Below, in pieces: positions 31,987 through 55,052 of a stretch of DNA of 64,000 nt. The DNA is from a virus. Taxonomy: Duplodnaviria; Caudoviricetes. The notes under the pieces are model-generated. The model worked only from the letters and a program-made list of their open reading frames with translations, searched no databases and was not told the origin of the DNA. The position numbers and the translations under genes were made by a program. How positions within the stretch are numbered: position 1 is the first letter of the stretch; every line of letters begins with the position of its first letter. Location: positions 32,001 to 96,000 of the IMG/VR virus record IMGVR_UViG_3300035101_000015. One strand, written 5' to 3'.

Positions 31987-32025
31987 GGGTGTTCTCCCTT
32001 GATTCGTGTTGGTCGGTGTCGTGCC

Positions 32026-35835: not shown

Positions 35836-36555
35836 ATGTACCTATTGAGCATGGGAAGCGAGGACCTGGTCAGCCGCAAGGAGGCCGCAGCCATCTTGGG
35901 CACCACCGTCAAGATGGTAACCTACTGGACAGACAAGGAAATCCTCAAGGCCCACCCAGTCGACGGGGACCCACTCGGTAGGCTCATGTACGACCGAGAG
36001 GAAGTGGCGGCCCTAGCCGAAGCGCATGAGCGTGGAGAGAAGCTCTCCGACGTTGCCATGACCGCCAAGGTAGCCTATGCCTCCGCGCGTGTAGCACAGA
36101 GGAAGGCGGACATGCTAATGCGTGCGTTTGGGTACGGTCCGTCGCTGAGCACGGACCCAGAGTCCGTGCGCGCTCTGCACCTCGAGGCGGAGGAGGATTG
36201 CAAGCGGGTCATCAACGGTGAGGAGCGAGTCAGCTACTGGGCTGACAAGTTCTTCGGCATCTGCGACATCTACATGGAGCATGTAGCTGAAGTGATGAAG
36301 ACCGAGGAGCCATGGGAGCCCTACCTCACCCTGATGAGGCGACTCGCCAAGAATGCCGATTACGATGAGGCCGCCCACAACCCACTGCTGCGGCACGCCT
36401 ACCACCAGTTGACAGCATCCAGAGCTGCATTCCGGCAATCCTTCTTCACCTACCTCAGTGCCAAATTCGGAGTTAGAAAAGCGAGGAAGGCATTCCCTCA
36501 GGAGTTCGGCGGTGAGATGTACCGCATCATGCGCTACGCGGTGACGAACCGCTAG
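35836..36555 (+). CDS. HTH DNA-binding protein (MerR/excisionase-like N-terminus)
   Basis: VSRKEAAAILGTTVKMVTYW...L...RLMYDREEV. Confidence 0.7.
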   Translation: MYLLSMGSEDLVSRKEAAAILGTTVKMVTYWTDKEILKAHPVDGDPLGRLMYDREEVAALAEAHERGEKLSDVAMTAKVAYASARVAQRKADMLMRAFGYGPSLSTDPESVRALHLEAEEDCKRVINGEERVSYWADKFFGICDIYMEHVAEVMKTEEPWEPYLTLMRRLAKNADYDEAAHNPLLRHAYHQLTASRAAFRQSFFTYLSAKFGVRKARKAFPQEFGGEMYRIMRYAVTNR

Positions 36556-38363
36556 CCCTGGTCGATTGGCCCCGGCCAGTTCTGCTTGCGGAAGCCGTGG
36601 GCGTCCTCGGTGTCCGGCGCGATGATGTCCGGGCGCGGGTGGTCGAACATCGATGCGAGCCAGCAGTACAAGAACGCGTGGAAGGAGTCGTCCGGCTTGT
36701 CGACGCCGTGCTTGTACTGAATCATCTTCAGGTTCTCGTTGTACTCACTGAAGATGTTGAGCATGTCCTGACCGAAGGGGTCACGGAAGTCCTGCCACCG
36801 TGGGAACTCACACTTGCCACGCTTGATGGCGTTGAAGATGTCGCTCATTACCTCAGTGCGGCTCACTAGGTAGCGCTGCAGCTTCCCATCCCACACCACC
36901 TTGCCTCGAGCAGAGCGAGCCAAGTACTGGAACTTGCGCACGCGCTGAGCGCCGAACGTCTTCACCAACTTGTAGTTGCTGCTAAATCCTCCGCCGTAGT
37001 CGGAGCCAATCCACTTCACGTTGAAGAACCGGATGAGCTCGATGATGCGCTCGATTTGCACGTCGGGGTCCACCTCCTCACCCACGAACCGGTGGGCGAA
37101 GATGACCCGGAACTTCATGTCGATGTACATCCCGAGGAAGATGACGGTGTAGCTGTGCTCTCCTGTGCCCCAGTCGATACCGGCATACACGCCCTGCGCA
37201 TAGCTGAGCTTGCGGTAGTTCTCCATGTCCGCCATCTTCAGCTCGCCCTTGCAGGCGTCTCTCAGTTGGCGGGTGGTGAGTGGACGAAGACCGGAGTCGT
37301 AGGAGAGCCCGAGGCACTCGTTGTAGAACTTCTCTCGGGGGTAGTGCTCGTAGTTGTGGAGGATGTCGTTCTGCCAGTCGACCCACGGCACCATGAGCTG
37401 AGGGATGCGGTAGCTCTCCCAAGGAGCCTCCTTCACCATCCTCATCCACGTCGCGTCTGGGTGCATCGGGTTGATGAGCCGCTTGCACTTCTCACAGATG
37501 AGCCCACGCTTGCCGATGTTCTTCTCACCAAGGACGTTCCAGAACCTACCTGCTTCTCCTCCATGAGCATCACAAGGGACCACCCACTCGTTCTGGGTGC
37601 TCATGTTCGCGCGGTAGTACTCGAGGTGATTGTCCAGACTCTTCGGTGTCCCCGAGTACACCTGGCGCTTCAACGTCTTGGGAGCGTGGCTGAGACACTG
37701 CTCGATGACCGGGACGTTGTCCTGCAGCACATCCTGGAACTCATCGATGGCCAGCATGTAGGCTGGGATGCCGCGCGTGCGGTCAGCATTCAGGTAGGCG
37801 TAGCGCAGCGTAATCTTCGAGCGGTTGATGAACTGCTTCTCGAAGATGTTCTGCGACAGCATCGTCGTGGTGAACCGACGCAGCACGGGGCTGGTCTCGA
37901 TGGGTTCCTTCACACGGTCGTTGCTGAAGGTCTTCGTCTGCGTAGCTGATGGACTGACATACAGAGCCTTGTACGTCGGGATGAGGCTCATGTAGCAGAT
38001 GATGATGTTGCCCAGCAGAGTGCTCTTCTCGACCTGGCGTCCACAGAACAACAGCAGCCGCTTCGCCGGCGTGTTGTAGCAACGCACCATGTGCCGGCGA
38101 CCCTCGAAGCTGAACTTGTCTATCTTGACGCGCTCGTCTTCGTTGCCATCTTCATCGATGAACTTCTCCGCTCGTGGCATCCAGAACGCGTAGGAGGTGA
38201 AGTCCGCTGGAGTCAGAGCGGGTATCTTCTCCTGCTTCTTCCTAGCGTTCTGCAGGACTATGGGGTCTTCGACGAGCTCCGGCTCAGGTATCCAAATGCG
38301 GTCGTCGTACCAAGTATCGTCCCACTCGTCCTCGGGTTCGACGTAGACTGGTTCAGCCGCCAT
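36552..38363 (-). CDS. terL: Terminase large subunit
   Basis: CGRQVEKST (Walker A-like), AIDEFQD (Walker B), SGTPK coupling motif, AGIDWG and DDSFHA nuclease motifs. Confidence 0.9.
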   Translation of the reverse strand: MAAEPVYVEPEDEWDDTWYDDRIWIPEPELVEDPIVLQNARKKQEKIPALTPADFTSYAFWMPRAEKFIDEDGNEDERVKIDKFSFEGRRHMVRCYNTPAKRLLLFCGRQVEKSTLLGNIIICYMSLIPTYKALYVSPSATQTKTFSNDRVKEPIETSPVLRRFTTTMLSQNIFEKQFINRSKITLRYAYLNADRTRGIPAYMLAIDEFQDVLQDNVPVIEQCLSHAPKTLKRQVYSGTPKSLDNHLEYYRANMSTQNEWVVPCDAHGGEAGRFWNVLGEKNIGKRGLICEKCKRLINPMHPDATWMRMVKEAPWESYRIPQLMVPWVDWQNDILHNYEHYPREKFYNECLGLSYDSGLRPLTTRQLRDACKGELKMADMENYRKLSYAQGVYAGIDWGTGEHSYTVIFLGMYIDMKFRVIFAHRFVGEEVDPDVQIERIIELIRFFNVKWIGSDYGGGFSSNYKLVKTFGAQRVRKFQYLARSARGKVVWDGKLQRYLVSRTEVMSDIFNAIKRGKCEFPRWQDFRDPFGQDMLNIFSEYNENLKMIQYKHGVDKPDDSFHAFLYCWLASMFDHPRPDIIAPDTEDAHGFRKQNWPGPIDQG

Positions 38364-38617
38364 GTACCCTCCGAGGTTCACAGACGACCTGGGTCAAGCA
38401 GTTCAATGGCTCGGTGAATCTCTGTTCGCTGCCGTACCAAACCTCAGCGGGCAAGTCGCTTTTGCGGAGGACCCTGATGGTGACTGGATAGCGCTGCAAC
38501 TTGTAGAACCCGTCGCAAAAGAGCTCCGTGAACACTTCAGTGCTTACACTAAGGGGTATCTGAGAGAGTGTGGATGGCACGTCGACCGCTTCCGATTTCG
38601 TGCAGGTCGATTCGAGT

Positions 38618-40060: not shown

Positions 40061-42244
40061 CTACTGACCCTGGAATGCCAGAACCTTGAGCCCCTCGAGG
40101 ACCTCTTCAACCGTGCGCACTGCGCGCTCGAGCGCCGTGGTCGGCAGGTCCATGCCAACGCGGGCAGCCAGCAACAAATCGCAGAGTTTCTGCTGTGCTT
40201 CCTCAATGGAGGGCATGTAGCTCACGAAGCTCATGATGTTCTCGGGGTTGATGAACCCGAGGCTCAGGACCGTGTCGACAGCGGTGGGGTCGGGAATGAC
40301 CGCCGCCTCCTTCGTGAGGTCGCGACGTAGGCGCCCAGCGATGACCACGAGCTCCTGAGCCCGAGCGCGGGCCAACTTGTCCTGCTCCTCAGCCAGCCGG
40401 ATGGGTCGACCCGTCACCACTTTCACAGGCTCGTTCAGGGAGTGAGCCAGCTTCTGGACCCCGTGGGCCTGCTCCACCCCGAGTGCCGCCAGGAGGAACA
40501 TCGCCTGGTCCAGGTCCACCATCTGGGTCTCCGCGCTGGCGAGCTTGGACACGGCCGGGCCGGCGAAGCTGAAGCAGTCCTCGGCGCCTCGCACCCAGAC
40601 GTGGCTCTCCTTCTGCTCCTCGCCCTCCTCAGGCTCGTTGCTCTCCATACCCTCGGGGACACCCTCCGGGGCGGACTCGTGCCAGTCCTCGGGGGCCTCG
40701 CCCTGAGGCTCCTCGGAGCCAACCAGGGCCACGGCATCCGCAGCGCCCAGCGGAGTCCACTGCCAGTGCTGGGGAATCAGCACCTTGCCCTCGGGTGACT
40801 GAAGCACCGTCTGGATGTTGGGCTGGATGCTCACCTCCACGGGCCGGCCGTCGAAGGTGTTGCCCATCAGGGTAGGAGGCTCACCCGGCGAGGCATAGGA
40901 ACCACCCTGCAGCTCGAGCGGAATGGTGGCCTGCAGCTCACCCTCATCGGTGTAGCTGAAGAAGGCACCAGAACCACCAGGCTCCCCTGTAGGAAGGTTG
41001 CCGCCGTCGCCGGCAGGCACGCCCATGATGTCCGGCTGCATCGCCGAGTGAGAGCCATTCGTGAACATCGCCAGAGGGAGGGGAGTGCCATCGACATCGA
41101 GCAGGTTCGGGATGACGAAGCCGATGAGCTCCTTCCCACTCTGTTCGTCGGTCACCTTGTATAGGCCCGCCTCGTTGATGACCTCAGGCTGCTCCTGGTC
41201 GAGAGCACCCTCATCAGGCTGGGCAGTGGCGCCCTCGGTCATGGTGACCTGGCCAGACTCATCCGCTGCCAGCGCCACCTTCTCACCGAAGTGCTGCACC
41301 ACATCCCGGCGGCTCACAGGTACGGTGGTCGGCCTCCAATACAGGACGCTGGCCGTCTTCATGAGGTAGCCGTCAGGCTGCTTGATGAGCTGGACCACCG
41401 TCGGCTTGATGTTGGAGGCCAGTGCAGAGGCGCGCTTCTCCTGACTCACCGGCTCGTACTTGGCAAGGATTCCCAGCGGTCCAACCGTAGCGCTGTTGTT
41501 GTGCTGGTAGGCTGCCTGCAGGCTCTCATCCGAGCCCAGCTTCTCGAAGAACGAGTCCACGTCGGATTCGTTGAAGGTAGTGATGAGAGCAGCAGTGAGA
41601 GAGGCAGTCCTGTGGAAGGCGACCTTGGCAGAGGCAGTCTTCTCCTTCGTGGTGGGCGGCTTTCGGAAGCCGGCATCCTTCTCTTCTAGCTCCTTGATGA
41701 GGTACTCCTCGAGCACCGAGCTCTGCTTGCCCATGCCAGCATTCATCGCCACGCCACCACCACCGAAGCCGTAGTTCTGACGGTACGGTGGGTAGAGCTG
41801 CGAAATCATGGACTGGTCACCAGGCGTCTGTGAGGTGACGTCGAACGCCTGAGGACGGAACAGCGCCTGACGCAGGCGCGCCTCGGTCAGCGGGAGCACC
41901 TTGCCCGTGTCGTTCACGAGCAGGTCGAACGGAGCCAGCTTGCGCTCGCGGATGATGACGGGGATGCGGACGGCACGAATGCCGGCTGCCTCCATCATGT
42001 CCGGGCTGGTCCCCATCTGAGCTTCGCTCTTGCTCGAGATTTCGACCTGCCCCATCCCGTAGCCGCGCTCGCTGTCCACACGCTCCATCGTCACGTGAGG
42101 CTCGAAGTCGGCGATGTACGGGACCTGCTTGTACAGCTCCTGCAGGATTTCCTGCGGCCACTGGTTCGGGTCCTCGGGAAGGTCGACTTCACCGGCGGTC
42201 TTCTCGAGCGCGACTTCAGGCTGGATGAACAGAGGCTGCGTCAT
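40061..42244 (-). CDS. Large virion-region protein with K-x-[A/S] motifs
   Basis: EKTAG, EKTAS, EKRAS, MKTAS, SKLAS, TKEAA; C-terminal TVLSLGFINPENI. Confidence 0.6.
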   Translation of the reverse strand: MTQPLFIQPEVALEKTAGEVDLPEDPNQWPQEILQELYKQVPYIADFEPHVTMERVDSERGYGMGQVEISSKSEAQMGTSPDMMEAAGIRAVRIPVIIRERKLAPFDLLVNDTGKVLPLTEARLRQALFRPQAFDVTSQTPGDQSMISQLYPPYRQNYGFGGGGVAMNAGMGKQSSVLEEYLIKELEEKDAGFRKPPTTKEKTASAKVAFHRTASLTAALITTFNESDVDSFFEKLGSDESLQAAYQHNNSATVGPLGILAKYEPVSQEKRASALASNIKPTVVQLIKQPDGYLMKTASVLYWRPTTVPVSRRDVVQHFGEKVALAADESGQVTMTEGATAQPDEGALDQEQPEVINEAGLYKVTDEQSGKELIGFVIPNLLDVDGTPLPLAMFTNGSHSAMQPDIMGVPAGDGGNLPTGEPGGSGAFFSYTDEGELQATIPLELQGGSYASPGEPPTLMGNTFDGRPVEVSIQPNIQTVLQSPEGKVLIPQHWQWTPLGAADAVALVGSEEPQGEAPEDWHESAPEGVPEGMESNEPEEGEEQKESHVWVRGAEDCFSFAGPAVSKLASAETQMVDLDQAMFLLAALGVEQAHGVQKLAHSLNEPVKVVTGRPIRLAEEQDKLARARAQELVVIAGRLRRDLTKEAAVIPDPTAVDTVLSLGFINPENIMSFVSYMPSIEEAQQKLCDLLLAARVGMDLPTTALERAVRTVEEVLEGLKVLAFQGQ

Positions 42245-42252
42245 GTCTTTCC

Positions 42253-42924
42253 TCACGGCGGTACGCTGATTATGGCATCGAAGCTGGCTTTAGCAGAAGG
42301 TGTGGGCCCGAAGATGAGGACCCCGAAGACGTCGGGCTGGCTGAAGGGTAGTGGAGGCACCCCAGTATCCACTGGTGACTGTAGCTGTGGAGCCTGGGCC
42401 GCCAGCCATGCGGAGACTGCTCCCACCGTAGTTCCAGAGAAGGAAATGATGTAGAACGGCCCCACGCCGAGCGCAGCGGTGAGTGAGGCAGCAGCTTGAA
42501 TCGCCGGAATCTTGATGGCCAGCGCAGCCTTGATGAGCAACTGCAGCCCACCAAGTTGTACTTGTAGCGTCGCAGCCAATGCCGCCGTGGCAGCGAGCTC
42601 GGCACCGAGACTGAGCTGAATGGGTGGAAGCCCGAGTGACAGAGCACCAGCCAGTGCAACCTGCAGTTGAGCCAGTGCAGCAATGGATGCCTTGAGTGCA
42701 CCGATGATGCCGATGTCGCCGATGGAGATACTCAGTGACAGGCTAGCTTGTGCTGCCAGCGCAGCGTTGAACTGTGCTGCCAGCGCAACCTGGAATGGAC
42801 CGAGGCCGAGAGCGAGCAGCGCGTCTATCTGAGCACCCAGTGGGTTCAACAGAGCGACGGCTGCAGCCGCACCGACGTTGAAGTCGATGAGATTGATAGC
42901 GCGGTAGGCGTCGGGTAGAGCCAT
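42253..42924 (-). CDS. Very hydrophobic Ala/Leu/Ile-rich protein next to the spike gene
   Basis: Almost uncharged helical sequence over about 150 aa. Confidence 0.55.
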   Translation of the reverse strand: MALPDAYRAINLIDFNVGAAAAVALLNPLGAQIDALLALGLGPFQVALAAQFNAALAAQASLSLSISIGDIGIIGALKASIAALAQLQVALAGALSLGLPPIQLSLGAELAATAALAATLQVQLGGLQLLIKAALAIKIPAIQAAASLTAALGVGPFYIISFSGTTVGAVSAWLAAQAPQLQSPVDTGVPPLPFSQPDVFGVLIFGPTPSAKASFDAIISVPP

Positions 42925-42927
42925 GAA

Positions 42928-44190
42928 TCAGACGAGGATGGTGGGGTTACCTGTAGAGATGACCCCTTCGAGGAACTGACCGGAGAGGATGGTACCTGGT
43001 CCCTGCGGTGTGGTGATGGCAATTGGAATCGTGATGGCCACGCGTACCGTCGAGCCTACCGATGCCACCGGCTTTCCGCCACCATTGAGCACCAGGCCAC
43101 CTCCGGCCGTGCCCAGCTCCGCACCACTCTTGCCGATGAGCTTCACCGAGCCCTCGGCTTCGACGGACACGTTCTTCTTGCAGAAGATTTCGATGTTGTC
43201 GTCCACGGTGAGCCGGAGCTTCTTCTTCACCCGCAGGTTCACTGAGCCTTCCCAGCGCCCCATCATGTTGCCTGCACGGTCTACGAAGATGCGCAGCTTC
43301 ACATCCTCAGCGTCTGCCTTGAATTCACCCGCATCCGTCTCAAACCCGTTGCGGGCCAGCACCATCTCGAAGACTGTGTCCTCGTCAGTCCCAATCTCGA
43401 GCTGGTTGTTGTTTGAATCCTCACCAGCATCACCAGTGGGCTCCGGTACTGGAGAACGTACTCGACCCATGGCGAAACGCATGTCTGCATACTCATCGTT
43501 GGCGAACACGCGCACGGTGTGACGCCATTCCGTATCCGGGTCGTCGTTACCCCGGTCCTGCACACCCCAGTTGATGGAGCCGCCCGAGTTGAAGTGGTTG
43601 TACTTCTGGCTGATGTCGGTGACGAGGTTCTGCAGCGGGATGCAAATCCGTTGTGCGAGTGGGGTCGCGCCAAATTGGGCCACTCCTCCACGATGCAAAA
43701 TCATGAAGTTCCCATCTCTCGTTCGGGCTACGATGTCGCCCGGCTTCCCACGAGTCCTGCCACCTGCGTACGTGTAGTCGCTGGTACTCTCCGTATTGCC
43801 CGCCGCATCCGGTGAGGTTCCCGCAGGGGCCTCCTCGCTTGAGGTATCGGGAATCGTCACCATAGGCATGATGAAGGCCAGGACAAACGGCGGCGGCCCG
43901 TCCGAAGGAATGCAGATGAGACACTTCGCTCCTACCTCCGGTACAACGTAGAGACCCTCACCCTGGTTGGCGTTCATGTAGGGACTCGCAACCTGCAGGT
44001 CGAGCATGACCTTCTGGTCGAAGATGGTGGCGACGTCCACCGTCCAGTTGGTCATGTTGACGTTGAAGATACGCGCCTCGTGAACGTAGGCGGCGACTGC
44101 ACCCTCAGGCTGAGTCCACGATGAACGAGCGAAGCTACTCCACGCCAGTGGGTTGAAGTAGTCGGTGTACATGCCCTTGAGTGCGGGCAT
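42928..44190 (-). CDS. Baseplate central spike / hub (gp5/gpV-like)
   Basis: N-terminal OB-like VVPEVGAKCLI, beta-helix-like C-terminus ending KPVASVG...GVISTGNPTILV. Confidence 0.7.
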   Translation of the reverse strand: MPALKGMYTDYFNPLAWSSFARSSWTQPEGAVAAYVHEARIFNVNMTNWTVDVATIFDQKVMLDLQVASPYMNANQGEGLYVVPEVGAKCLICIPSDGPPPFVLAFIMPMVTIPDTSSEEAPAGTSPDAAGNTESTSDYTYAGGRTRGKPGDIVARTRDGNFMILHRGGVAQFGATPLAQRICIPLQNLVTDISQKYNHFNSGGSINWGVQDRGNDDPDTEWRHTVRVFANDEYADMRFAMGRVRSPVPEPTGDAGEDSNNNQLEIGTDEDTVFEMVLARNGFETDAGEFKADAEDVKLRIFVDRAGNMMGRWEGSVNLRVKKKLRLTVDDNIEIFCKKNVSVEAEGSVKLIGKSGAELGTAGGGLVLNGGGKPVASVGSTVRVAITIPIAITTPQGPGTILSGQFLEGVISTGNPTILV

Positions 44191-47100
44191 CTAGTACCCC
44201 CACTCGGGCAGACCCTTCAGATGAGGCGCCTTGAAGTGGTGGCGCTTCTTCGTCATGCCGAACTCCGCACCGTAGGCCGCACCCGGAATGGGATGCAATC
44301 CATGAAGGTCGCTCGCCGAGCCCTCTGCCGCAGCGTCGGTCAGGGTCTTGGTCAGCCGGTTGTAGTTCAGCTTGGCCATCCAGTCTTCTTGCATCGCCCG
44401 GGGCATCACATCAATACCCTTCATGATGGGAGCGTGGGTGATGGGCTTCTTGCCGGATTTCACGAGCTGGGAGTTCACCGCTCGGACCTTCGAGGTGGGC
44501 TGGTACTCACCCTTCAGGATACCGGACGCACCTCCTGGAGAGCGTACACGTGTGAGGTTGCTCATCCCCTTCACCACCGTCTCGATGTGCTGGCGGCGCA
44601 CGCCCTCGTTCTTGAAGATGCCATGGAGCTCGTCCGTCAGGTAGTTCTGCACGCGCTCCATGTTGTTGGTGGCCTTGTACAAGTCGTGTGGGTTCACGAA
44701 GGTACGGGCGGGGTCACTGAGCTGCTGACCAGCCTCGACCTTCATACCCACCTTCGGCGGAGTCCAACCAGGCGCCTGCATGTTAGGTAGTGAGGTATGA
44801 AGTGACCTACCAGTTCGGTCCTTTGGAACGAAGTGCTTCATCCCATCGATGAAGATGTTGGTACCAGTACGACCCGTCTCCACCTTGTCGACGGTACCAG
44901 ATTTCATGGCTAGAGAGGCAGAGTCCGGGATGCGCTTCGGCAGCAGCGTGAGCTGCTTGGTGCGGTCGAACATGCCGAGCGTTCCACCACCCTCTGCTTT
45001 CACACCACCTGAATGGAATGCCTTCAGCGCGAGCTGCACCGAGCGCTCACCGAGAGACTGCGCTCCGAGCACGCCGACGTTGGTGCCCTTGTCGTAGTAC
45101 TGACCTGTAGGACTGAGCCCAGCGCACTTCTGGCAGAGACCCTCTCCATGCTCACACTTCAGGGTCGAGCGCACGACAGCCTGCGCGTTCTTGTCGAGCC
45201 GGCGAATCTGACCGACCACGTCTGGGGACATGATGGTCCCCTTCTTGAAAGTGCGACCACGCACCTTCAAGTCCGTCGCGAGCTCGCGGTCGTGCACGTC
45301 CTTGCTGCCTATAGGCAGGCCAACACCACGCTGGGTACCACAATCGTCACCATTCACCACCATGTTCATCGTGGTGTTGATGAGCTGCTTGGAGAAGTAC
45401 CCCGGGTCCTGAACCTCCTGCACCTTCTGGATGGAGCCCTTGCGGGCACCGCTGGACTGGGTCCAGTACCCCGCCACGTCGAGTCCTTCGGAGTAGGACT
45501 TCGTCACCGGCATCGGTATGGTTCGCCCAGCAGCATCCTCGAGGAGCATCGGTGCCAGCTTGAGCTGCTGGTACTGTGACCACTTCGGCTTGATGCCAGC
45601 ATCGTGCATCCTGAAGAGGTTGTCCGGGTTCTTGGTGGCACCAGACAGGTGCTTCTGCTGCATCTGAGTGGTGGCCTTACCCCACTCGGCAATGGCACGC
45701 TGCTCCTTCTGAGCCTTGGTCAACCCAGAGTTGTTTATCATGTCCACACGCCGCTGCGTGGCTCGGATGATGGGGTCTCGAACCTTCCTGTCAGGTGTCA
45801 GGTCATCGAGGCTGAGCGAGTGGGTACCGACGGGAAGGGTTTGAACCTTCTTGGGATTCTCCGCTGCGTCGATTGCACCAGGACCCACATGCTTGCCTGG
45901 GTGCTTCAACCGAATCTGTCCATAGGAGGCATCGAAGCCAAAGTCCTTGAGCTTGTTGGCTGCATCCCCAAACTCCTGAGGGTGCTTCCTTGCCAGCTCA
46001 CCGTACAGCTCATCGATACCCCTGCCGTTGAGCTGGAACTTGTGGTCTGTCAACACGCGCTGCTGCATCGGCTTGGGCAGCGCGGTCGACAGCAGAGCTC
46101 GACCCGGTGTCGTCTTGCCTAGCCCCTTGATTTGCGCCAGCTCATCGATGCCGAGCTTGCCCGACTGCACAGCCTTCAGTGCATCAGCGGGGCTGCCGAA
46201 CCTTCGGTTACCGGTACCACGCACCTGAGTCATCTTGTAGAGACCGAGCGCGCTCTCGAGCGTGGGGGTGTACGCCACGCGCCCAGTCGCCTCATTGAAG
46301 AGGTTCCTGGAAGGCATCATGCCGCGAGCCTCTTCGACTGCCTCGTCGCTTATCGGCACGTACATGCTCATCTGGTCGCCATCGAAGTCGGCGTTGTACC
46401 CAGAGACGGTGAGCGGATGAATCTTGATGGCCTTGCCCTTCACCCGATGAGCCTTGAACGCCTGGATGCTGTGCTTGTGCAAAGCTGGGTCGCGCTTCAT
46501 GAGCAGCGGCCGTTCCTCCATCACCATGTCGAGCGCACGCTGGACGTTCTTGTCTCGATGCACACCCTTCTTCGTCAGCATCTCCTGCGCCTCGAGGGCG
46601 CTGGGCGCAACGCCGAGCTCGGTCATCTTCTTGACCACGAACGGTCGGAACAATTTCAGCGCCTTCTCCTGAGGGACGCCCACGTCATCCAACCCCATGC
46701 CCGGCTCTGGCACGATGGTCGAGCGCATGCTCATGTCCTGACGTCGACTGAGCAGCGTCTTCTGGAAGTAACCTTCCTTAGGTGACGCGCCGGAGATGAG
46801 CTCCATGACGCCCTTGGCCTTCTTGGTACCCTTCTCCGAGCTGGACTGCCCGACACCAACCAGGGCCTTCAGGCCATCGTACATCTCTCGGCGGTGCTCC
46901 TTCAGGTCGGCATCCCCGATACCGAGGTGTGCCTTACCCTTGAGCTCTTTGAGCTGACCGTTGTTCTGAGCGAAGTTGGAGTAGAGACCGTTGAGGTCCT
47001 CCCAGCGCACGTTGCCATCCTTCATGATGCTCGGTGGGCGCATGGCAGGAGGAAGCACGGGGAGGTTCTTGACGGTGTACGCGTCGTCGGGACTGACCCC

Positions 47101-50100
47101 CTTCTCCTTGAGCAGGCTGAGGTACTTCACCCGCTTCAGAGCATTGTCGAGCTTCTGGGTGTTGGCTCCATGAGCAAACCCTGAGGGGATGTTGGCAGCA
47201 TGCAAGTCCTTCTTGGCTTGGTCGAGGGCCTTGTCGACGCTGAGCCCTTTCAGCGCGCCGGCGATTGCTGCCCCACCAGTATCACCCTTGCCTAGTGCAA
47301 CGACGTTGCCCTTCTTGTCCAGAGCCTTGTCACCATTGACCACGTCGTTGTACTGCCTACCAGTGAGGCCGAGCACCTTCTGGATGGCACCCTCGAACAT
47401 CGGGTTCGGCATGGGCTCGGCGAGCTTCATGTGACTCCACTTCTTGCCGCCCACACCACCAGTCACCTTCTCGTCGAACAATCCTCCTGGTAGAGGCTTG
47501 AGGTTGCCCTCCTTGTCCACCTTTGAGTAGGTCAAGCGGCTGGGCTGCTTGAGCTCACCCGAGGACATCTTCATCACCTCAGCATCCGTGAGCGGGCTGA
47601 GCTGCATCCGGTGGCCCTTCTTCTCCACATTCACACCGGAGGCACGCAGCATGTCGGTGAACTTGCGGAAGGCGAAGGTGGGCTTGGGAGTAGGCAGTGG
47701 CTCACCTAGCTGGATGGAGTTCCACACCTCATGGTGCTGACTGGGGAACTTCTTCGCCTCGGGTGCAGGGTCGGGGCCCTGGGACTTCCACGTCTGCGCC
47801 TCACGGATGTTGGCCTTCGCTCCATGGGCCAGCAGTACGTTGAGTCCGAGATTGCCGAACGACTGCCCGCCACTCTTGCCTCCACTGGTGGGCATGAGGT
47901 TGACGTCGTAGGTCTCGGGCGTCTCGCCCTTGAGCGTCAGACCAGAGCGGACGCTGACCTTCTTGTCCACCTGGTGCTGCAGCTTGAGCATGTGCTGGGG
48001 TCCAACCAGAGCCTTGCCCAGGCTCTTCCCCGTCCTCGGGTCTACGAGCTCCTCTTGGTCACTCAGGCCGTGCCTCTTGAGCTCCTTCTTCACTCGGTCG
48101 ACCTGGTCCACACCGTGCTCGAAGTTGTCGATGACGATGGGCTTGCCAGTCTTCTTGGCCACCTTGCCCAGTGCTGTCTCCAGCACCTGACCGACGTTCA
48201 TACGTCCGGGCACGCCCGATGGATTGAGGGCCACCTGCACGACCTCGCCGGACTTGGTACGTGGCATCTCCTCGTCAGGTACGACCTTGGTCACGATGCC
48301 CTTGTTGCCATGACGGCCGGTGAGCTTGTCGCCGACCTGCATCTGCTCCTCGGTCTTGACGTGTACGGTGACCTCGCCCTTCTTGTTCTTGTGGACGCCT
48401 ACGACCTTTCCACCGTAGTCGCTGTCCCACTTGAGTGAGGCGTCACTGTGCTGCCCAGCGAGGCTCTTTCGGATGCGAGCGATGCCCGAACGGTCGGTGA
48501 TTTGCACGGGACGTGTCGCCAATACCAGAGGGTCACCTGGATTCACATGCTGACCGACCTTCACCACACCATCATCACCCAGCTTCCCGTACTGCTCCTT
48601 CTTGTAGGACTCCGGGTGCTGCACCTGGAACTTCTTCGGAGCGGTGACGTCCTGGTCGGTGAGCTTCACACTCGGCTTGTGCATGTGCTCGCTGCGCAAC
48701 TTCTTGGCAGCGCTCTCACTGATGACGACGCCATCCTCGAAGTTGTATCCCTTCCAGGGGATGTAGGCGACGTTGAGGTTGGCACCCAACGCCAGCTTGC
48801 CTTTCTTGGTGAAGTTGGTGTCGGCTACAGGCTGACCAGCCTTGACCTTCTGGCCCGGCTTGACCGTGGCCTCGGAGTTGAGAACGGACTTGGCGTCGTT
48901 CAGGGGGAAGTTGTCGTAGAGCTGGACGGTGTGAGCCTTGCCCTTGGAGTCCTTGAGCACGACTCCCTTCTTGGTGACCTTCTCCACAGTCCCATCCACC
49001 GGCGACATGTGCCCAGACTGTCGACCGATGAACTCCTCGAAGCTGCGAACACCCTTGCGGCCCGAGCCGGTGCCAACCTGTACCAGTGGCTCTTCACGGT
49101 CCTTCAAGCTGATGGCCTGCTCGATGTGGTGGGTCGCGTAGCTGGCGCGGTTGCCTGAGTTGTTCCCCATGAAGGGGATGAGGTTGCTCGTCATGCTGAA
49201 CGCCTGCGATGGGTGGAACATCGCGTACTGGGCGTCCTTCATACTCATCTCCTCGAGCTCGTTCGCCTTCGAGGAGACCTTCACCTTTGAGCCTACCGCT
49301 GTGGGTTTGCCACCTTCCCACTTCACCTGGTCTGGCAGAACCACGTTCGACTTGACGAAAGTGCCTGGTCCGATGAGCTCCTTCTTGCCAGTTTTCAAGT
49401 TGTATACCGGAATGCGTGGTTCTTTCCCCACCTTCTTCACACCCATTGGCAAGTGAAGCGTCACGCCAGTCTTCTGGCCCTCAGGGGTATGCAGTGGGTC
49501 AACGAACCCGAAGTGGCTGGGGTTGATGAGCTTCGCCTCATCCATGATGGCGTTCTCGCTCTGAATGCCACCTGGGCCCATGATGGTGGTGGACATCGAC
49601 GAGGCCATCATCTCTACAGGATTGACCTGGTCCGCCACCCGCATCGCCGAGTTCTTCCTGAAGGTGTCCTGCACGGGCTTGTTGAACACCTCACTGCGGA
49701 CGACGTCTCTTGGTGAACTGGCGTTGTTGATTTGCCGCAGCATCTTGTTGCGGATGGACTTGGCCGTCTTCCAATCGGTCAGCTTGTCGTGAGCGTAGTC
49801 GCCTACGCTGCGCAGGTCCTTGAACACCAAGTTGTCCCGGTCGTCCTCTGGCGCGCCGGCCTGGACCTTGAGCATCTTGGAGGTGGCCCTGGTGAAGGCG
49901 TCACCCTCCACTCGGTCGAACTTCTTGCCCAGCGTGAGCTCGGTGGCATCGGGTCGGACCTCCGAGGCCATCAGGGTGTCCCGCACGTACGCCTCGGCCG
50001 CCTCCCTGTCCTTGGGCGCGAACTTGCGGTCGGCCTTGAAGAAGCGCTCGAGCGCGGTACCGGCGCCACGCGCATTCTTGTTGGCCTCGAGGACGTCCTT

Positions 50101-50652
50101 GCCCCATTGCCGCTCGAGCGTGTCATCGTCGACCCCCATCGCCTTCATGATGGGGTAGACGGGGATGCTCTTCGACTTCCCCCGCTCCATAAGGAAGGTC
50201 TTCTTCTCAGGATTGAAAGTGATGTCGAATGCCGGACGGTTGGCGATGTTGAACCTGGTCTCGAGCTCACCACTCTGACGGCGTCGGGTGTAGACCCCTG
50301 GCTTGAGCTGCCACTGGTTGTCAGCCTGGTATTCCTGACCGCCCACGATGTAGCTGTAGCGACGGGTGAGCACGGGCAGCTCCGCCACCTTCATCCGCTG
50401 AGTGGTCTCCTTACCTGTCTTGTGGTCCTTGAGGGCCATGGTGGCGTACACCGGTCGGCTGAAAGTGCCGCCCTCCACCTTGGCCTTGTGCTGACCCTCG
50501 ATGTCATCGGAGTCGGCTTTCTCCATCTGCACGTCCAGGTCCTTCAGGACGAGCGACTGCTCTCGTCCCTCGACCGGGAAGTGGGAGCGGATTCCTTCCA
50601 GCGCCCGCTCCTTGAAATCCGCAAACGCCTCGTCGTGGTCCAGGTACGCCAT
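44191..50652 (-). CDS. DNA-directed RNA polymerase, fused beta-beta' single polypeptide
   Basis: Beta motifs HFGFVDPLHTPEG, GYNFEDGVVISE, GDKLTGRHGNKG, LNPSGVPGRMNVGQ; beta' motifs LPVLPPAMRP, KRDPALHK, catalytic YNADFDGDQM, trigger loop AQSLGERSVQLALKAFHSGG. Confidence 0.95.
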   Translation of the reverse strand: MAYLDHDEAFADFKERALEGIRSHFPVEGREQSLVLKDLDVQMEKADSDDIEGQHKAKVEGGTFSRPVYATMALKDHKTGKETTQRMKVAELPVLTRRYSYIVGGQEYQADNQWQLKPGVYTRRRQSGELETRFNIANRPAFDITFNPEKKTFLMERGKSKSIPVYPIMKAMGVDDDTLERQWGKDVLEANKNARGAGTALERFFKADRKFAPKDREAAEAYVRDTLMASEVRPDATELTLGKKFDRVEGDAFTRATSKMLKVQAGAPEDDRDNLVFKDLRSVGDYAHDKLTDWKTAKSIRNKMLRQINNASSPRDVVRSEVFNKPVQDTFRKNSAMRVADQVNPVEMMASSMSTTIMGPGGIQSENAIMDEAKLINPSHFGFVDPLHTPEGQKTGVTLHLPMGVKKVGKEPRIPVYNLKTGKKELIGPGTFVKSNVVLPDQVKWEGGKPTAVGSKVKVSSKANELEEMSMKDAQYAMFHPSQAFSMTSNLIPFMGNNSGNRASYATHHIEQAISLKDREEPLVQVGTGSGRKGVRSFEEFIGRQSGHMSPVDGTVEKVTKKGVVLKDSKGKAHTVQLYDNFPLNDAKSVLNSEATVKPGQKVKAGQPVADTNFTKKGKLALGANLNVAYIPWKGYNFEDGVVISESAAKKLRSEHMHKPSVKLTDQDVTAPKKFQVQHPESYKKEQYGKLGDDGVVKVGQHVNPGDPLVLATRPVQITDRSGIARIRKSLAGQHSDASLKWDSDYGGKVVGVHKNKKGEVTVHVKTEEQMQVGDKLTGRHGNKGIVTKVVPDEEMPRTKSGEVVQVALNPSGVPGRMNVGQVLETALGKVAKKTGKPIVIDNFEHGVDQVDRVKKELKRHGLSDQEELVDPRTGKSLGKALVGPQHMLKLQHQVDKKVSVRSGLTLKGETPETYDVNLMPTSGGKSGGQSFGNLGLNVLLAHGAKANIREAQTWKSQGPDPAPEAKKFPSQHHEVWNSIQLGEPLPTPKPTFAFRKFTDMLRASGVNVEKKGHRMQLSPLTDAEVMKMSSGELKQPSRLTYSKVDKEGNLKPLPGGLFDEKVTGGVGGKKWSHMKLAEPMPNPMFEGAIQKVLGLTGRQYNDVVNGDKALDKKGNVVALGKGDTGGAAIAGALKGLSVDKALDQAKKDLHAANIPSGFAHGANTQKLDNALKRVKYLSLLKEKGVSPDDAYTVKNLPVLPPAMRPPSIMKDGNVRWEDLNGLYSNFAQNNGQLKELKGKAHLGIGDADLKEHRREMYDGLKALVGVGQSSSEKGTKKAKGVMELISGASPKEGYFQKTLLSRRQDMSMRSTIVPEPGMGLDDVGVPQEKALKLFRPFVVKKMTELGVAPSALEAQEMLTKKGVHRDKNVQRALDMVMEERPLLMKRDPALHKHSIQAFKAHRVKGKAIKIHPLTVSGYNADFDGDQMSMYVPISDEAVEEARGMMPSRNLFNEATGRVAYTPTLESALGLYKMTQVRGTGNRRFGSPADALKAVQSGKLGIDELAQIKGLGKTTPGRALLSTALPKPMQQRVLTDHKFQLNGRGIDELYGELARKHPQEFGDAANKLKDFGFDASYGQIRLKHPGKHVGPGAIDAAENPKKVQTLPVGTHSLSLDDLTPDRKVRDPIIRATQRRVDMINNSGLTKAQKEQRAIAEWGKATTQMQQKHLSGATKNPDNLFRMHDAGIKPKWSQYQQLKLAPMLLEDAAGRTIPMPVTKSYSEGLDVAGYWTQSSGARKGSIQKVQEVQDPGYFSKQLINTTMNMVVNGDDCGTQRGVGLPIGSKDVHDRELATDLKVRGRTFKKGTIMSPDVVGQIRRLDKNAQAVVRSTLKCEHGEGLCQKCAGLSPTGQYYDKGTNVGVLGAQSLGERSVQLALKAFHSGGVKAEGGGTLGMFDRTKQLTLLPKRIPDSASLAMKSGTVDKVETGRTGTNIFIDGMKHFVPKDRTGRSLHTSLPNMQAPGWTPPKVGMKVEAGQQLSDPARTFVNPHDLYKATNNMERVQNYLTDELHGIFKNEGVRRQHIETVVKGMSNLTRVRSPGGASGILKGEYQPTSKVRAVNSQLVKSGKKPITHAPIMKGIDVMPRAMQEDWMAKLNYNRLTKTLTDAAAEGSASDLHGLHPIPGAAYGAEFGMTKKRHHFKAPHLKGLPEWGY

Positions 50653-50691: not shown

Positions 50692-50722
50692 CTGCAAGGA
50701 GTTGATGAACACCGGGATAAGA
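50692..50722 (+). promoter_or_regulatory. Candidate promoter CTGCAA-N18-GATAAGA
   Basis: The same bipartite motif with identical spacing recurs at 54872-54902; both copies head plus-strand units. Confidence 0.5.
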
Positions 50723-54871: not shown

Positions 54872-54902
54872 CTGCAAACTAGGGGGTGACGCAGTGATAA
54901 GA
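54872..54902 (+). promoter_or_regulatory. Candidate promoter CTGCAA-N18-GATAAGA for the Y RNA/ro60 unit
   Basis: Ends 5 nt before the first base of the first Y RNA stem (54908); matches the 50692 element. Confidence 0.55.
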
Positions 54903-54907
54903 ACTTC

Positions 54908-55052
54908 GCAGCAGACCGGAGACTCTGGGTTATCGGTTAGAGCGTTGGGCTCTGCTTCGGCGAGTCCAGAGGTCGCGGGTTCAAGTCCAGCCTCCTTGCC
55001 TCGGCGGGGAGTAGCTCAGTAACAACACCCAGTTTCGTCACTTGTCTGCTGC
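54908..55052 (+). ncRNA. Y RNA (YrlA-like) enclosing a circularly permuted tRNA-like domain opened in the D-loop
   Basis: Terminal stem GCAGCAGAC/GTCTGCTGC with GACCGG/CTTGTC bulged helix. Inside: GGTTAGAGC, a UUCG-capped arm, T-arm GGTTCAAGTCC, closed acceptor CTCCTTGC/GCGGGGAG, then TAGCTCAGT. Confidence 0.8.

Follow-up and report, generated by a model that had tools for sequence, protein, structure and literature searches.

The locus described here lies in a 64,000-nucleotide window (positions 32,001 to 96,000) of IMGVR_UViG_3300035101_000015, a 145,842-bp IMG/VR virus record of a tailed phage whose estimated completeness of 78% implies a whole genome of ~187 kb. At 44191..50652 on the minus strand, a single open reading frame (ORF) without internal stop encodes a 2153-amino-acid (aa) fused beta-beta' RNA polymerase (RNAP), here P0001. 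Pfam domains of the beta subunit come first (Rpb2_3 at residues 339-401, Rpb2_6 at 552-903) and those of beta' follow (Rpb1_1 at 1014-1240, Rpb1_2 at 1303-1446, Rpb1_5 at 1723-2045), with E-values that reach 7e-66. Rpb1_1 is a weak match below the Pfam cut-off (29 versus 39.7 bits), and the other four are above theirs. P0001 is a complete bacterial-type beta module joined head-to-tail to a complete beta' module in one chain. The initial annotation, made from the letters of the window, had read beta motifs followed by beta' motifs in this ORF, and the uninterrupted frame and the order of the Pfam domains confirm it.

The beta module (residues 1-1010; 47623..50652, minus strand) comprises the protrusion, the lobe, a divergent rifampicin (Rif) region, a flap with a flap-tip-like helix and the GDKLTGRHGNKG barrel motif. 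Residues 17-961 align with residues 33-1016 of a cyanobacterial beta subunit at an E-value of 8e-80, versus ~1e-30 for archaeal or eukaryotic B/RPB2. The beta' module (residues 1011-2153; 44194..47622, minus strand) has clamp helices, the catalytic barrel, the bridge, a trigger-loop region (KAFHSGG) and a short tail. Its residues 1124-2135 align with Streptomyces beta' 246-1249 (E 9e-105), and the first 54 beta' residues give a weak alignment, below significance, to beta' 16-54. The junction at E1010/K1011 (47620..47625, minus strand) is seamless. The beta end ...GVNVE leads directly into the beta' start KKGHRMQLSPLTD..., with the last conserved beta block ...FTDMLRASGVNVE abutting the first conserved beta' block KKGHRMQLSPLTDAEV...; relative to E. 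coli, ~4 residues from the C terminus of beta and 14 from the N terminus of beta' are without an equivalent there. At the other end of the module, a short basic C-terminal tail (44194-44256, minus strand) follows the last conserved beta' block; its final Tyr is invariant in the aligned family and in gp216 of the cultured phage Arash.

The catalytic set is intact. NADFDGD (residues 1420-1426; 46375..46395, minus strand) is invariant across the family alignment, and this motif, the beta barrel motif and the trigger-loop KAFHSGG are all invariant or nearly so in the family. A second zinc site (C1771, C1833, C1840 and C1843; 45124..45342, minus strand) is retained, and its Cys columns are invariant. 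AlphaFold (AF2) models, a check that the initial annotation had proposed, were built from 31-sequence family alignments and match full-length bacterial subunits. For the beta model (mean predicted local distance difference test, pLDDT, 81) the best Foldseek hits are bacterial beta with template modelling (TM) scores of 0.72-0.77, and for the beta' model (mean pLDDT 78) they are bacterial beta' with TM 0.72-0.74. The predicted fold is of full-length bacterial type rather than archaeal or eukaryotic. Domains, catalytic motifs and modelled fold together uphold the view that this is a phage-encoded two-barrel RNAP that is fused yet cellular-like.

The enzyme had also been described as minimal and much shorter than E. 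coli beta plus beta'. It is indeed shorter, but this is less remarkable than it seems, as the difference is mostly the E. coli inserts SI1, SI2 and SI3. In a MAFFT alignment with the E. coli and Salmonella proteins, P0001 lacks beta 215-355 (SI1), beta 946-1048 (SI2), beta' ~946-1100 (SI3), a few short stretches and beta' 68-99. SI1, SI2 and SI3 are lineage-specific inserts of Proteobacteria, and P0001 is short mainly because it is without them. The last of the gaps is of another kind. The 32-residue stretch that corresponds to E. coli beta' 68-99, with all four Cys zinc ligands of the beta' zinc-binding domain, is absent from P0001, from every aligned family member and from Arash. The initial annotation had noticed the missing Cys cluster, and the loss is genuine; its site, between G1069 and K1070 (47443..47448, minus strand), lies just after GLFDEKVTG and not before it, as had been stated. 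Judged from the alignment, this domain is the sole core element that P0001 is missing. Because nothing but the inserts and the zinc-binding domain is absent, and the models of the two halves match whole bacterial beta and beta' subunits (TM 0.72-0.77), the word minimal was an overstatement: the enzyme is compact but not minimal, a near insert-free bacterial core minus one domain.

Sigma docking sites are kept in the form of the clamp helices and the flap-tip-like helix, although the flap tip is divergent. By the generally known positions of the rifampicin pocket, four classical residues are substituted (Q513R, H526S, R529S and S531T, E. coli numbering), which suggests that P0001 would resist rifampicin. 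There is no sign that the chain is cleaved into beta and beta'. The head-protease mark K-x-A/S has only two conserved copies, both within conserved beta-module segments (one in KKVSxRS), and no conserved copy lies at the junction or the termini.

P0001 belongs to a lineage that is large and old. A word-indexed search returned >100 full-length homologues of 2130-2170 aa with 54-77% identity, on contigs of up to 200 kb. When the beta' half was used in an exhaustive HMMER search, the best 150 clusters (50% identity) were all of this family, at 530 bits or more versus ~350 for bacterial beta', and the metagenomic family counts >150 such clusters. Family genome sizes are 173-200 kb. No near-identical DNA was found in phage records, and no description of the fully fused family was found in open-access papers and preprints. 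Many relatives are longer (2400-4739 aa) through intein or LAGLIDADG insertions (among them P0123, P0127, P0141, P0151 and P0196; L013, L015 and L020); P0001 has none. That the ORF might be an assembly or frame artefact joining two genes is already contradicted and scarcely credible. Nothing was found in its favour, the same junction and length (~2050-2170 aa) occur in hundreds of independent assemblies, and two cultured phages, Arash and Vibrio phage D69, have the junction as well.

Could the gene instead be a cellular rpoB-rpoC operon that was captured recently, or an rpoBC fusion like those of Helicobacter, Wolbachia and some candidate-phyla bacteria? In favour are the bacterial architecture, a best NCBIfam match to the fused RpoBC model PRK09603, and a 2281-aa fused gene in a metagenome-assembled genome (MAG) of Paceibacterota. 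However, P0001 scores 500.7 bits against a cut-off of 5372 for PRK09603 and 455.9 against 4632 for PRK14844, about ten-fold below in both cases. When 185,579 prokaryotic species were searched, with one genome per species, the best cellular matches were ordinary rpoC at 25-30% identity, and no prophage copy or close cellular copy was found. We also computed a maximum-likelihood tree (41 rows, 1999 columns, LG+G4, quick search) with few Gracilicutes, no archaeal or eukaryotic outgroup and no rows for phiKZ or the multimeric-RNAP-encoding Caudovirales (mReC). A branch with a Shimodaira-Hasegawa-like approximate likelihood ratio test (SH-aLRT) support of 100 has all 20 bacterial rows on the same side; these represent seven phyla and include the fused Paceibacterota protein. 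Nineteen fused phage proteins form one group (support 92) that is sister to Arash plus Vibrio phage D69. A recent rpoBC capture, which the initial annotation had named as an outcome that would speak against its reading, is contradicted by both the tree and the cellular search, and we regard it as exceedingly improbable; on these comparisons, P0001 is evidently not a recent bacterial capture.

The Paceibacterota protein (L126:172-7014, plus strand, contig DATJQA010000074.1), which comes from the candidate phyla radiation, is unusually compact for a fused RpoB-RpoC. Because it groups with bacteria and the phage protein is far below the fused-model cut-offs, the two fusions are best read as having arisen independently. 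Two further observations concern other records. In Rhizobium phage RHph_Y65 (Kleczkowskaviridae, 207 kb), an annotated 1127-aa beta' (L046:8001-11384, plus strand) is 24% identical to the beta' half of P0001, and no matching beta part was found in that record. A MAG labelled Gammaproteobacteria has overlapping rpoB and rpoC (L100:1899-8934, plus strand) of 1094 and 1263 aa, unusually short for the class; the label or the bin may be wrong.

The RNAP gene is located within the structural block, as the initial annotation had proposed, and this is a conserved family feature, because the synteny of portal, RNAP, spike-like gene and terminase recurs in related loci. The usual order there is a portal homologue, a short gap, the RNAP, a 420-aa gp5/VgrG-like protein, a 731-aa protein, a 311-aa protein and the terminase. 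In the window, the 420-aa protein (42928..44190, minus strand) is a candidate central spike or hub whose gene begins with the nucleotide immediately following the RNAP stop codon, and its homologue follows the RNAP in 30 of 33 related loci. This adjacency had been noted before and stands. The label of spike given to the adjoining ORF is plausible but tentative, and leans on a Phage_base_V match below the cut-off (E 0.001) and on nearest Atlas clusters that carry Phage_base_V, Gp5_OB or DUF2345. The 731-aa protein (40061..42256, minus strand) is conserved at the same relative position in 27 related loci; it has no family match. The terminase large subunit is at 36552..38381 (minus strand; phrog_675, E 1e-53). 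The portal homologue (59614..61683, minus strand) is 31-34% identical to Arash gp204, an annotated portal, and to its D69 counterpart, and has homologues in 28 loci. PHROG and Pfam searches with the four genes downstream of the RNAP and with the portal homologue gave no or weak matches.

In most relatives the portal homologue is directly upstream of the RNAP, and the annotated portal of Arash has the same place relative to its RNAP gene. In the window and the closest relatives, a plus-strand block at ~50.7-59.6 kb is inserted between the two, with a cargo of an ATPase, an HNH-like protein, Ro60 with Y RNAs, and tRNAs. The spike-like gene is followed immediately, at 42253-42924 (minus strand), by a gene for a 223-aa Ala/Leu/Gly-rich, strongly hydrophobic protein without a family match. 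It is kept only in the closest relatives and has atypical third-position GC.

What might such an enzyme work with? This record has exactly one RNAP gene, as does each of five relatives with a completeness of 95-100% (173-185 kb; terminal repeats in three), and no homologue of alpha or omega was found in any of these six. The initial annotation had recognised no alpha, omega or sigma gene, which is right for the window, but the genome carries a sigma70-family gene ~26 kb before it (G000:C1:4788-5615, minus strand). The 276-aa product is homologous to Arash gp10 (E 6.5e-15), which carries a Sigma70_r3 domain. The gene surfaced only through this homology. A Sigma70_r2 hidden Markov model found no match in the genome, and the single 276-aa sequence stays below NCBIfam cut-offs and has no Pfam match. 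The 114 homologues are more informative. Many match PF04539 (Sigma70_r3), a few match PF04545 (r4), and the JGI name is 'specialized sigma subunit'. The family profile matches SigA 189-375, from region 2.3 to 4.2 (E 6e-15), and its positions 25-245 align nearly end to end with residues 31-264 of a 278-aa sigma factor chain. By these matches the partner gene belongs to the sigma70 family, with regions 2, 3 and 4 recognisable. A profile search found one copy in each of the five relatives, and several sigma homologues and RNAP matches are on contigs of matching lengths. Given that a conserved sigma70-family gene, in one copy per genome, travels with the RNAP, action of the RNAP without a sigma factor is unlikely. 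According to reviews, jumbo phages with their own RNAP lack a recognisable sigma and those with a sigma lack an RNAP; unlike these, the fused family evidently has both. Arash has a second sigma, gp196, for which no convincing homologue was found in this genome.

A candidate promoter came from a scan directed at GATAAG. This hexamer is rare in the genome (14 copies), and 8 of the 14 have a (T)GCAA-like element upstream. Six are exact matches to GCAA-N17-19-GATAAG, all of them on the plus strand. A relaxed scan gave seven sites, again all on the plus strand and all upstream of plus-strand gene blocks; those outside the window are at G000:C1:21527, 22117, 22938, 97135 and 102003 (plus strand). 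The window has two copies, versus a chance expectation of 0.18. One, GCAA-N18-GATAAG at 50694..50721 (plus strand), is divergent from the RNAP gene and heads the plus-strand block, a placement that recurs in loci L005 and L018. The other (54874..54901, plus strand) ends 7 nt before the predicted Y-RNA 5' end at 54908. Across five family genomes, including relatives at ~40% RNAP identity, the motif occurs 28 times, versus once for a reversed control. In this genome its copies head non-structural plus-strand blocks, not structural ones. In sigma70 -10 elements the final T is the most conserved base. Because the -10-like hexamer here ends in G where sigma70 has this T, the motif suggests a private promoter class. 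An unsupervised k-mer promoter search gave nothing, with either crude or GC3-based gene calls (GC3 being third-position GC), and a sigma70-type consensus scan around the RNAP gene gave no more matches than shuffled sequence.

The sigma need not belong to this polymerase. It might serve the host core only, and the fused RNAP might use another, unrecognised initiation factor, as the RNAPs of phiKZ and AR9 do. The mutual exclusion of recognisable sigma and phage RNAP in published jumbo phages would fit such an arrangement, as would the divergent flap tip. Yet the sigma and RNAP genes co-occur one-to-one in every genome checked and are also found together on large contigs. P0001 keeps its clamp helices, sigma gp10 was found with the RNAP in Arash particles, and the motif is kept among relatives at just ~40% RNAP identity. 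We consider this arrangement improbable and take the phage sigma to be the likelier partner of the fused enzyme.

In the scheme that best explains the whole, and towards which we lean, the single chain would assemble without an alpha dimer or omega and pair with the phage sigma70-family factor. The resulting holoenzyme would start at phage promoters of the form GCAA-N17-19-GATAAG, and such promoters would head plus-strand blocks, probably of early genes. The RNAP would be produced late, together with the structural proteins, and enclosed in the particle; it would then enter the cell along with the DNA and begin transcription. The enzyme probably lets the phage transcribe its own genes independently of the host polymerase.

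Packaging itself, which the initial annotation had put forward as a possibility, is somewhat favoured by the evidence. It fits the late-gene context of the RNAP and the confinement of the motif to non-structural blocks. Mass spectrometry of particles of Arash ranked gp206 first by spectral count (3516), ahead of the major capsid protein, with 1210 spectra for gp216 and 100% coverage of the sigma gp10 (PMC10585845). The competing account is that the RNAP is not packaged. Host RNAP, perhaps redirected by the sigma, would then handle early genes, and the fused enzyme, made in infection, would take over middle or late transcription like T7 RNAP or the non-virion RNAP of phiKZ. A single RNAP gene per genome accords with this account, which also gains from the absence of a recognisable N-terminal extension, head-targeting propeptide or cleavage signal on the RNAP, with no conserved cleavage mark at its termini or junction. 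The Arash particle proteome, moreover, consists of 116 proteins that include metabolic enzymes (ribonucleotide reductases) along with RNA ligases and helicases, and its authors noted that abundant intracellular proteins could be carry-over (PMC10585845). Against it stand the spectral count of the Arash homologue, which exceeds even that of the major capsid protein, the family-wide position of the RNAP gene between portal and spike in the structural block, and the motif copies at the head of non-structural rather than structural plus-strand blocks. We rate non-packaging as unlikely, though the least unlikely of the alternatives, and continue to favour delivery of the enzyme in the virion.

Beyond the missing targeting signal and the carry-over already described, several points weigh against the scheme. 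The fully fused members, this phage included, are known from sequence and models alone. The contig is 78% complete, and a second transcription factor could be missing from it. Alpha could still be recruited from the host, and the sigma could redirect the host core enzyme. The layout of the motif resembles a weak sigma70 -35/-10 promoter, and the motif was not found in the 72 kb of Arash that were examined. In sum, the single-chain bacterial-type RNAP is real and well supported, and the mechanism (sigma, private promoter, virion delivery, no alpha or omega) is plausible. The boldest version is more tentative, and we would not yet bet on it: a self-sufficient two-component holoenzyme of bacterial type, one beta-beta' chain plus one sigma with no alpha or omega, that uses its own promoters, is injected, and represents a widespread ancient lineage that is sister to the bacterial RNAPs as a whole and derives from none of them.

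The family is very common in metagenomes of varied environments, and current database labels for such genes are merely 'beta' subunit' or 'hypothetical'. If the enzyme does work without alpha and omega, nature would have provided a test of the role of those subunits, synthetic biology would gain a compact two-gene transcription system of bacterial type, and the RNAP tree would gain a deep branch. A two-component holoenzyme would be the simplest enzyme in nature to preserve the complete architecture of a bacterial RNAP.

The nearest cultured relatives, at ~30% identity, are Arash (gp206 and gp216, with sigma gp10; PMC10585845) and the Vibrio phages D69, D148 and D181. The Arash/D69 type and P0001 have in common the seamless beta/beta' junction (in gp206, for example), loss of the zinc-binding domain, adjacency to the portal, and homologous portal and sigma proteins. 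The Arash paper labels its proteins plainly beta and beta' and leaves the fusion unmentioned (PMC10585845), and the second Arash sigma has no clear counterpart here. In Arash and D69, beta' is cut after the catalytic domain, giving proteins of 1525/1545 aa and 606/609 aa, whereas the frame of P0001 is continuous. Between the pieces lie two tiny ORFs in D69 (L002:12537-13177), a homing endonuclease in D181 and D148 (OZ196140.1 and OZ196545.1) and nine genes in Arash. Since both groups share the beta/beta' junction, the fusion appears to predate the split of the fused family from Arash/D69. The interruption of the Arash and Vibrio phage beta' after the catalytic domain, by small ORFs, a homing endonuclease or nine genes, suggests that the split form is derived. 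The occupants of the break in the Vibrio phages suggest that a mobile element split an originally continuous gene.

The mReC are described as multimeric-RNAP-encoding Caudovirales (Weinheimer & Aylward 2020, PMC7481178). Like the fused family, they are uncultured tailed phages (100-300 kb for mReC) with cell-like beta and beta' that branch outside the cellular clades. They differ in having separate beta and beta' genes (1361-1371 plus 1005-1010 aa, or 1009-1017 plus 900-915 aa), with two sets on some contigs (PMC7481178). No fused ~2150-aa entries were found in the published mReC tables (PMC7481178). Their capsids are Gp23-type (PF07068; PMC7481178), and a search here, run without a positive control, gave no PF07068 match.

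Cellular rpoBC fusions (PRK09603 of Helicobacter, PRK14844 of Wolbachia, and the Paceibacterota protein) have the same beta-then-beta' order in one ORF, but these are ordinary bacterial enzymes, with alpha, omega and host sigma as their partners. PhiKZ and its relatives (Chimalliviridae) and AR9 also have a phage two-barrel RNAP without alpha or omega, and there one set is packaged and injected. Those RNAPs consist of 4-5 polypeptides, occur as two paralogous sets and have diverged much further, and the factors that they use show no sequence similarity to sigma, whereas P0001 is one chain in one set, accompanied by a recognisable sigma70-family gene. In crAss-like gp66, YonO and the tape-measure-fused RNAP of Thermus phage P23-45, both barrels are in one polypeptide, as in P0001, and some of these enzymes are virion-delivered. 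They retain little beyond the catalytic core and are missed by cellular beta/beta' models, whereas P0001 keeps the whole bacterial domain set. The cell-type RNAPs described from phages thus come either in many pieces without a recognisable sigma (phiKZ, AR9) or as proteins in which the catalytic core alone is recognisable (crAss-like, YonO). The fused family represents a third solution: a whole bacterial core in one chain, together with a recognisable sigma70-family factor and, putatively, a simple promoter.

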